Assembly (NCBI GenBank): GCA_001872725.1 | Contig: MNWR01000081.1 | Span: 33,849-97,848, forward strand | Origin: Proteobacteria bacterium CG1_02_64_396 | GTDB lineage: Bacteria; Pseudomonadota; MNWR01; CG1-02-64-396 | Length of the DNA stretch: 64,000 nucleotides | Direction: 5' to 3' | Part shown: positions 59,665 to 60,483 of the stretch, piece after piece | Layout: each line of letters opens with the position of its first letter | Position numbering within the stretch: the stretch's first letter is position 1 | Translations under genes and position numbers: made by a program | The notes under the pieces: model-generated | What the model saw: the letters and a program-made list of their open reading frames with translations, nothing else | The model's database searches: none | What the model was told of the DNA's origin: nothing

Positions 59665-60483
59665 ATGATGTGGATCGTTCTGGTCGTGGTCGTGGTCGTG
59701 GTCGTGGTCGTGGTCGTGGTCGTGGTGCTGATCGTCGTAGCGGTGTTGGTATCGTCCAAAACCAAAGCCATCGGGGGTCAGGGTGCGCCCCCTCCCTACG
59801 AACGTAAAGATGAACCCCTGTTCACCACCGCCGAACGCTCCTTTTTGGGGGTCTTGGACGAAGTGGTGGCAGGGCGGGCCAGGGTGTTCGGCAAGATCCG
59901 TGTGGCCGACGTATTGACCACCCGCAAAGGGCTCGAACCCAAAGCCCGAACCGTCGCCTTTAATAAAATTTCGGCCAAACATTTTGACTTCGTCCTGTGC
60001 AATCCCGCCGATCTATCGATTTTGGCGGTGCTTGAACTGGACGACAGCAGTCACAAAAAGGGCAAACGTCAGGAGCGCGATGCCTTCTTGGAACAGGCCT
60101 GTGCCGCCGCCGGGTTGCCCCTGCTGCGGATGCCAGCCAAGAAGGGGTATGTGCTGGCCGAGGTGGCCGAGTGGCTGGCGCCGGTATTGCCCCTGGCGCT
60201 TTTCCCGGCTCCATCCTCCCACCCCGCGGTTGTTGCAACGGCGGCATCTTCCCCCGCCCCGAAAAACGAAGCTCCAGCGCCCGCTGTGGCGTTGTCAAAA
60301 CAGGCACCTTTGCGCACGACACCCCCCGCTGAAACAGTCGCAGAAAAAATCTGCCCCAAATGCTCCTCCACCCTGGTTCAGCGGGTGGCCCGCCAAGGGG
60401 CTCACGCGGGCAAACGGTTCTGGGCTTGCAGCGGTTACCCCACGTGCAAACACATCGAGCCGGTGGCAGAGGTTGTCGTTTGA
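59665..60483 (+). CDS. DUF2726-like PD-(D/E)xK nuclease-fold protein with N-terminal poly-Val TM anchor and C-terminal topoisomerase-type C4 zinc ribbon
   Basis: AAGGAG SD 5 nt before the ATG. HFDFVLC...LAVLELDDSSHKKGK (D...ELD...K nuclease-like motif). CPKCSSTLVQRVARQGAHAGKRFWACSGYPTC (zf-C4_Topoisom pattern). Confidence 0.6.
   Translation: MMWIVLVVVVVVVVVVVVVVVLIVVAVLVSSKTKAIGGQGAPPPYERKDEPLFTTAERSFLGVLDEVVAGRARVFGKIRVADVLTTRKGLEPKARTVAFNKISAKHFDFVLCNPADLSILAVLELDDSSHKKGKRQERDAFLEQACAAAGLPLLRMPAKKGYVLAEVAEWLAPVLPLALFPAPSSHPAVVATAASSPAPKNEAPAPAVALSKQAPLRTTPPAETVAEKICPKCSSTLVQRVARQGAHAGKRFWACSGYPTCKHIEPVAEVVV
59683..59724. repeat. (GTCGTG)7 perfect hexanucleotide microsatellite within the coding N-terminus, encoding poly-Val
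   Basis: Seven contiguous GTCGTG units read directly; translation gives the V14-16 run in the TM segment. Confidence 0.9.

Follow-up and report, generated by a model that had tools for sequence, protein, structure and literature searches.

A perfect GTCGTG hexamer repeat in the 5' coding region of a DUF2726 gene was found with five, six, or seven units in independent assemblies of a single groundwater population, with flanks that are otherwise identical. We consider the tract to be a recently expanded, hypermutable, and tolerated in-frame coding microsatellite, in which replication slippage generates a length polymorphism as opposed to an on/off switch, and we would place the probability of this reading at about 0.65. 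The bacterium is uncultivated and belongs to the Crystal Geyser groundwater population (PRJNA229517). The whole stretch of DNA that was analyzed, referred to throughout as the window, is 64,000 nucleotides long with 62.4% G+C, and all positions are given in its coordinates unless stated otherwise.

The GTCGTG tract and its reading frame

The original prediction of seven exact GTCGTG units was borne out both by direct reading of the sequence and by TRF, which reported a period of 6, 7.7 copies, 100% matches, 0 indels, and a score of 92, and placed the tract as the top-scoring short-unit array of the window (Table 1). The tract lies in frame with the 272-aa open reading frame on the forward strand because its first unit begins a whole number of codons after the start (59683 - 59665 = 18). 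The tract accounts for V7-V20, and V21 comes from the GTG codon that follows, so that 14 of the 15 residues of the valine run come from the tract and the N-terminus of the protein reads MMWIVL-V15-LIVVAVLVSSK. Being a perfect tandem array with a unit in the range of 1-6 nt that sits within an open reading frame, it has the form of a coding simple sequence repeat (SSR). The (RG)n frame and the antisense (HD)n frame of the tract were considered and rejected, as only the valine frame is backed by homology. Internal GTG starts were likewise rejected, including that of a 259-aa call (P0001), which is an artefact of an N gap in its source assembly.

Tracts of this kind are rare in comparable DNA. 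With a unit of 2-9 nt, at least 4 copies, and at least 24 nt as thresholds, the GTCGTG tract was the sole perfect microsatellite in the window, and a scan of 707 kb from other Proteobacteria loci returned one case, which was shorter (a 7-mer x 4.7). Short tandem repeats are also depleted in bacterial genomes (PMC12699852), and the rarity that had been claimed for such microsatellites is consistent both with this depletion and with our local survey. Under the valine codon usage of the neighboring genes, the exact GTC/GTG alternation over 15 valine codons has P ~6e-7; together with the rarity of such arrays, this argues that the tract arose through slippage or unit duplication and not through codon-by-codon selection for valine.

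Table 1. Positions of the features of the DUF2726 locus within the window.
Feature	Position	Strand	Basis or remarks
Shine-Dalgarno-like AAGGAG	59655-59660	+	4 nt before first ATG (59665), 7 nt before second (59668)
CDS, 272 aa: anchor, Vsr-like DUF2726 domain, disordered linker, Top1-type zinc ribbon (predicted)	59665-60483	+	ORF list, Pfam, homologues
Membrane-anchor helix (predicted), residues 1-31	59665-59757	+	No charged, Q/N/H, or Pro residue; AlphaFold helix
Perfect hexamer microsatellite	59681-59726 (periodicity); 59683-59724 ((GTCGTG)7)	+	V7-V20; 5, 6, and 7 units in population
DUF2726 domain, residues 50-171, Vsr-like PD-(D/E)XK fold	59812-60177	+	Pfam, alignment
Pro/Ala-rich linker, residues 172-227, predicted disordered	60178-60345	+	Low pLDDT
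Topoisomerase-I-type C4 zinc ribbon, residues 228-267	60346-60465	+	PF01396, alignment, Foldseek
Long perfect-stem hairpin, then UUGUUU	60505-60571	+	22 nt after stop; RNA fold

Repeat number varies within the Crystal Geyser population

Four other assemblies of the locus were traced by way of the identical protein and the members of its cluster, and many more by exact look-ups of LeuA and of the 364-aa protein encoded downstream. With alleles scored on the assembled contigs, the tract was fully spanned in 11 assemblies from the same population. Seven units were present in six of the 11 (the window itself; GCA_002793495.1, counted here and probably the same record as the window; JGI 3300008007; JGI 3300025124; ERZ27293368; and ERZ27293367), six units in four (ERZ909569, from SRR1534387; ERZ909570, from SRR1556897; JGI 3300014060; and JGI 3300025129), and five units in a single assembly, ERZ27293351. 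All 11 tracts are perfect and differ by whole units, and none of these assemblies carries an allele of one to four units.

The surrounding DNA is close to invariant. Across 92,984 aligned nucleotides from 19 contigs we counted one substitution and five indels, and every one of the five indels is 6 or 12 nt in length and falls at the tract, which is by far the most mutable site in ~9 kb. The rest of the DUF2726 gene shows no substitutions, frameshifts, or stops, its open reading frame is intact in every assembly, and the gene calls of 267, 269, 270, 271, and 272 aa are the same apart from the tract region. The locus therefore combines a unit that is a multiple of three with whole-unit differences between close relatives whose flanks are conserved, as is characteristic of a coding SSR. 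The predicted in-frame alteration of anchor length is thus visible in the population, with 27, 29, and 31 uncharged residues in the anchors of the five-, six-, and seven-unit alleles, respectively. An invariant copy number and an unconserved nuclease motif had been named in advance as grounds for abandoning the prediction, and we found neither.

The tract site is hard for assemblers, and several contigs terminate within it. Four Logan contigs stop after exactly 30 periodic nt, which we take to be k-1 for k = 31 and which is uninformative on tract length. Two JGI 3300004088 contigs abut one another, each with 38 nt of pure repeat, and the tract in that assembly must therefore be longer than 38 nt. 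GCA_002323185.1 has 94 N within the tract, and its gene call begins at a GTG within the repeat because of this gap. The DNA of GCA_002793495.1 is 100% identical to the window; its GenBank record (PJA23779.1) calls only the C-terminal 117 aa containing the zinc ribbon, as a hypothetical protein (positions 5001-5354 of locus L004, equivalent to 60130-60483 of the window), leaving the anchor, repeat, and nuclease domain unannotated. Exact-pattern scans of metagenome contigs (upstream flank plus first units) and of genome contigs (downstream flank) gave no match. Ten constructed alleles, covering 3-9 units and both start codons, were also sought as exact matches in a collection of 15 billion proteins; none was present, but neither was the real 272-aa allele.

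Predicted architecture of the DUF2726 protein

The product matches the Pfam family DUF2726 (PF10881) at 2.1e-39, scoring 134.6 bits where the cut-off is 24.7 and covering positions 2-123 of the 126 in the profile, and further on matches Zn_ribbon_Top1 (PF01396) at 1.2e-9 over residues 228-267, scoring 38.2 bits where the cut-off is 32. A database search returned 1866 homologues, nearly all of which have both domains, and even the best of those from outside the Crystal Geyser population reaches only 52% identity. Among 46 aligned homologues of 40-52% identity, E57, K77, D82, H106, D108, E124, L125, D127, H130, R138, and D139 of the DUF2726 domain are invariant, as are the zinc-ribbon cysteines C230, C233, C255, and C261. 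The nuclease fold and C4 ribbon of the original prediction are upheld by these matches and invariant residues. The proposed D...ELD...K motif survives in part: the D and the E-L-D are conserved, but the lysines after H130 are not, and the conserved motif is instead D108...E124-L-D127...H130, of the Vsr type. A conserved set of acidic and histidine active-site residues is thus present on a restriction-endonuclease-like core, which suggests that the protein is a nuclease. DUF2726 has been assigned to the Vsr / DUF559 / I-Bth0305I group of PD-(D/E)XK nucleases, with its function given as unknown (PMC3424549), and the literature that we found contains no biochemical characterization of any DUF2726 member.

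An AlphaFold2 model built on the 46-homologue alignment (mean pLDDT 83.5) contains a single continuous helix at residues 2-33 (pLDDT 88-97), a confident alpha/beta core, and a three-stranded ribbon with strand pLDDT above 90. Foldseek matched this ribbon to GRF and RNAP-subunit ribbons. The linker falls below a pLDDT of 50 at residues 183-198, 207-210, and 212-222, and its length differs between homologues. An N-terminus composed of M-x-W, a hydrophobic stretch, and K/R is common to the homologues, and the M-x-W start itself, present in 90 of 119 homologues, fits the MMW encoded from the first ATG. The modeled helix and this shared hydrophobic N-terminus agree with the earlier proposal that the repeat encodes the poly-valine core of an N-terminal anchor. 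Across the 119 homologues, the residues preceding the hydrophobic stretch number 1.8 on average and have no net positive charge, while the 12 residues C-terminal to the anchor contain a mean of 2.9 K/R. Read through the positive-inside rule, these flanking charges point to an N-out/C-in topology, which would place both the nuclease domain and the zinc ribbon in the cytoplasm.

The anchor is unusually long for its family. In 119 homologues at no more than 52% identity, the uncharged N-terminal stretch, defined as free of charged residues, Q/N/H, and Pro, has a median length of 19 residues (5-95% range 16-22, maximum 24), and the longest homopolymer within it is four residues. In the window protein the stretch reaches 31 residues with a run of 15 valines, and subtracting six units (12 residues) from it leaves 19. 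None of the 119 homologues has a repeat in its anchor. From these comparisons the expansion is specific to the Crystal Geyser lineage, and the simplest history would begin with one or two GTCGTG units in an anchor of normal length, which subsequently expanded.

Discussion

The polymorphism described here enables us to propose a model for its origin and maintenance. During replication, nascent and template strands would mispair within the perfect 46-nt periodic stretch, leading to the gain or loss of whole GTCGTG units and, with each of them, of one Val-Val pair. Given the 6-nt unit, the frame and the downstream protein would be unchanged and only the N-terminal membrane helix would vary in length; since all alleles stay in frame, the locus is no on/off switch. 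In coding SSRs whose units are 3 or 6 nt long, indels add or remove residues without a frameshift, and indels in SSRs occur at rates far above those of substitution (PMC3013739); we infer that slippage is likewise the mutational mechanism here. The protein is expected to be a single-pass inner-membrane protein with a two- to three-residue N-terminus outside, and with the Vsr-like nuclease domain and an ssDNA-type zinc ribbon on the cytoplasmic side. In this model the anchor would need only to exceed ~19 residues, the family norm, and the 27-31 residues found across all alleles are well above it. Extra valines could then extend or tilt the helix, changes in length would probably be tolerated, and the locus would drift between neighboring repeat numbers in the population. 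Under this model, in which neutrality is assumed, the variation in anchor length most likely has little or no functional consequence. With every allele well above the norm and none of one to four units observed, the long anchor could be maintained by selection; equally, the population could descend recently from an ancestor with six or seven units.

Selection could also act on the variation itself, with a reversible repeat number tuning the nuclease via anchor length and producing phenotypic heterogeneity, although we think this unlikely. Repeat number might then act through insertion efficiency, hydrophobic mismatch and lateral localization, proteolytic turnover, or translation initiation. 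Such a role would fit a tract that is the most mutable site in ~9 kb and that keeps the anchor far above the family-norm length in all alleles, as well as a putative nuclease as the product, since nucleases are often under contingency control, as in phase-variable restriction-modification systems. The tract also begins 18 nt past the start codon, in a region whose sequence can influence initiation, and the predicted probability that the start codon is unpaired is 0.74 at five units, 0.52 at six, and 0.22 at seven; when the series is taken from one to ten units, however, the mRNA folding effect is non-monotonic and within prediction noise. Furthermore, a 6-nt unit is unable to switch frame, 0 of 119 other family members have a repeat in the anchor, which argues against a family strategy, and the gene has neither a defence-system match nor partner genes that are conserved. 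Neutral stepwise mutation, moreover, predicts just such a set of three adjacent alleles in a near-clonal population. The specific scenario in which clonal cells slip between helix lengths to give graded membrane nuclease activity, as an in-frame quantitative counterpart of phase variation, seems to us very unlikely. Were repeat number to act in any of these ways, cells of one clone would differ in insertion, localization, stability, or translation initiation.

The difficulty of the site for assemblers raises the question of whether the alleles are real. De Bruijn assemblers may collapse or mis-resolve a periodic stretch, and a single true tract length could in principle have been rendered as several; the many contigs that end in the tract, including the four from Logan and the two from JGI 3300004088, and the N gap of GCA_002323185.1 would be in keeping with this. 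Yet at 34-46 nt the periodic stretch falls far short of the final MEGAHIT k (k127 and k141 in contig names), and the spanning k-mers therefore come directly from reads. Two pipelines (ENA MEGAHIT and JGI) yielded the six-unit allele, in four assemblies, and at least three yielded the seven-unit allele, in five or six, the tracts are all perfect, and the differences are of whole units with clean flanks, all of which makes an artefact highly improbable. We attach less credence still to the notion that the 27-31-residue stretch has taken on an altered role, for instance as a re-entrant or oligomerizing segment, or as a degradation signal that would in effect inactivate the protein, with the gene heading to loss. 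It is true that the anchor exceeds that of all 119 homologues, by 8-12 residues relative to the norm, and that the GenBank annotation of one assembly retains only the C-terminal 117 aa. Against this, the open reading frame is intact in every assembly with all catalytic and zinc residues present, the rest of the gene is free of frameshifts, stops, and substitutions, and the model predicts one confident helix. A tolerated in-frame microsatellite is consequently the reading that we carry forward.

As such, the tract belongs to a recognized class, that of polymorphic in-frame coding SSRs, and reveals no new mechanism; its setting is the predicted membrane anchor of an uncharacterized Vsr-like nuclease. 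It resembles the in-frame coding SSRs of PSSRdb in being a perfect short-unit tract within a gene, in producing whole-unit residue indels without a frameshift, and in having an indel rate far above the substitution rate (PMC3013739). It differs from them in lying in the core of a membrane-anchor helix of a predicted cytoplasmic nuclease as opposed to a surface-exposed or linker region, and in coming from an uncultivated groundwater population and not from isolates. Among simple-sequence contingency loci, the opa genes of Neisseria carry a CTCTT pentamer in the signal-peptide coding region. Both opa-type loci and the GTCGTG tract have a slippage-prone repeat in an N-terminal hydrophobic leader, with repeat number varying in a clonal lineage. 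In opa-type loci, however, the unit is not a multiple of three and slippage switches expression on or off by frameshift, whereas the 6-nt unit is always in frame. A contingency locus is one in which repeat number switches expression; here the alleles are in frame and the tract follows the start codon, outside any promoter position.

Two further comparisons concern the protein. Relative to the Vsr / DUF559 / I-Bth0305I group, the DUF2726 protein adds a predicted membrane anchor, a long disordered linker, and a Top1-type ribbon, and no mismatch-repair or homing context was found around DUF2726 genes in 81 loci. In the Type I restriction subunit HsdS, EcoR124I and EcoR124II have two and three copies, respectively, of a 12-bp repeat. 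This offers a parallel, in an enzyme system acting on DNA, of an in-frame repeat whose copy number determines how long a helical spacer is; the change in length in HsdS demonstrably alters DNA specificity, whereas the GTCGTG tract is known only as a length variation.

The locus offers an unusually clean natural case, with ~9 kb of invariant sequence containing one six-base repeat of at least three lengths in one repeatedly sampled aquifer. It indicates that environmental, non-pathogenic bacteria of high G+C content are subject to in-frame microsatellite instability, and suggests that the helix of a membrane anchor can accommodate 8-12 additional valines. On a practical level, the tract explains the breaks in assemblies and gene calls at this site, and could be a strain-tracking marker for the Crystal Geyser population.

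Genomic context

The DUF2726 gene is divergent from leuA, which lies ~600 nt upstream, and with its own ribosome-binding site and a hairpin after the stop it looks like a self-contained unit. Genes encoding DUF2726 plus the ribbon occur in Gamma-, Beta-, Delta-, and Zetaproteobacteria and others. When open reading frames of at least 90 aa were clustered across 81 loci, no conserved neighbor emerged, and the next-largest clusters were antisense shadows of the DUF2726 gene or genus-specific synteny; the family thus appears to be a widespread stand-alone gene. PADLOC gave no match at E <= 0.1 for the DUF2726 protein or its two downstream neighbors, NCBIfam nothing above cut-off, and PHROGs a match only to a family of unknown function. 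An operon or defence-system reading was rejected on the basis of the PADLOC result and the lack of a conserved partner in the 81 loci. The original description of the architecture as typical of DNA-targeting accessory proteins was not supported, for the same reasons, the gene standing alone without conserved neighbors.

The hairpin downstream of the gene has a stem of ~30 bp and a predicted energy of -52 kcal/mol (z = -6.95; none of 200 shuffled sequences was as stable), and is probably a terminator or palindromic element closing the transcription unit. Its length is well beyond that of usual intrinsic terminators, and it could be a palindromic repeat element. A simple terminator scan did not pick it up, which we attribute to that scan's rule of a 5-8-nt loop and a 5-T tail. 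Beyond it lie two open reading frames on the forward strand, 60609-61703 (364 aa) and 61700-63349 (549 aa), which overlap by 4 nt and both have hydrophobic segments; Pfam, PHROGs, and PADLOC gave no match for either of them, and they are not kept beside DUF2726 genes elsewhere. On the other side, the 596-nt intergenic region between the divergent leuA and DUF2726 genes (59070-59664) gave no Rfam match and no match to a sigma-70 consensus promoter, and Rfam returned nothing credible across 55-64 kb of the window. This region may contain a leuA leader or regulatory element.

An element of ~168 nt with 22-nt terminal inverted repeats (CTAGGAGTCTGTCGGACTTGAG ... CTCAAGTCCGACAGGCTCCTAG) is located at 54027-54195, and a second, inverted copy, ~97% identical, lies just past position 64000 (9314-9452 of locus L003 and 9329-9452 of locus L001). 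The two copies flank a ~10-kb segment that includes the DUF2726 gene, and the 10-kb JGI and ENA contigs begin and end at them. The element has the appearance of a MITE or of a dispersed palindromic repeat. Elsewhere in the window, a second perfect in-frame repeat, the 15-mer GCGACCGGCGAAGGG x 3.2 at 13329-13376 (TRF score 96), encodes (PSPVA)3; the repeat lies in a Pro-rich linker of a ~1130-1160-aa membrane protein, whose gene occupies 10394-13876 on the reverse strand.
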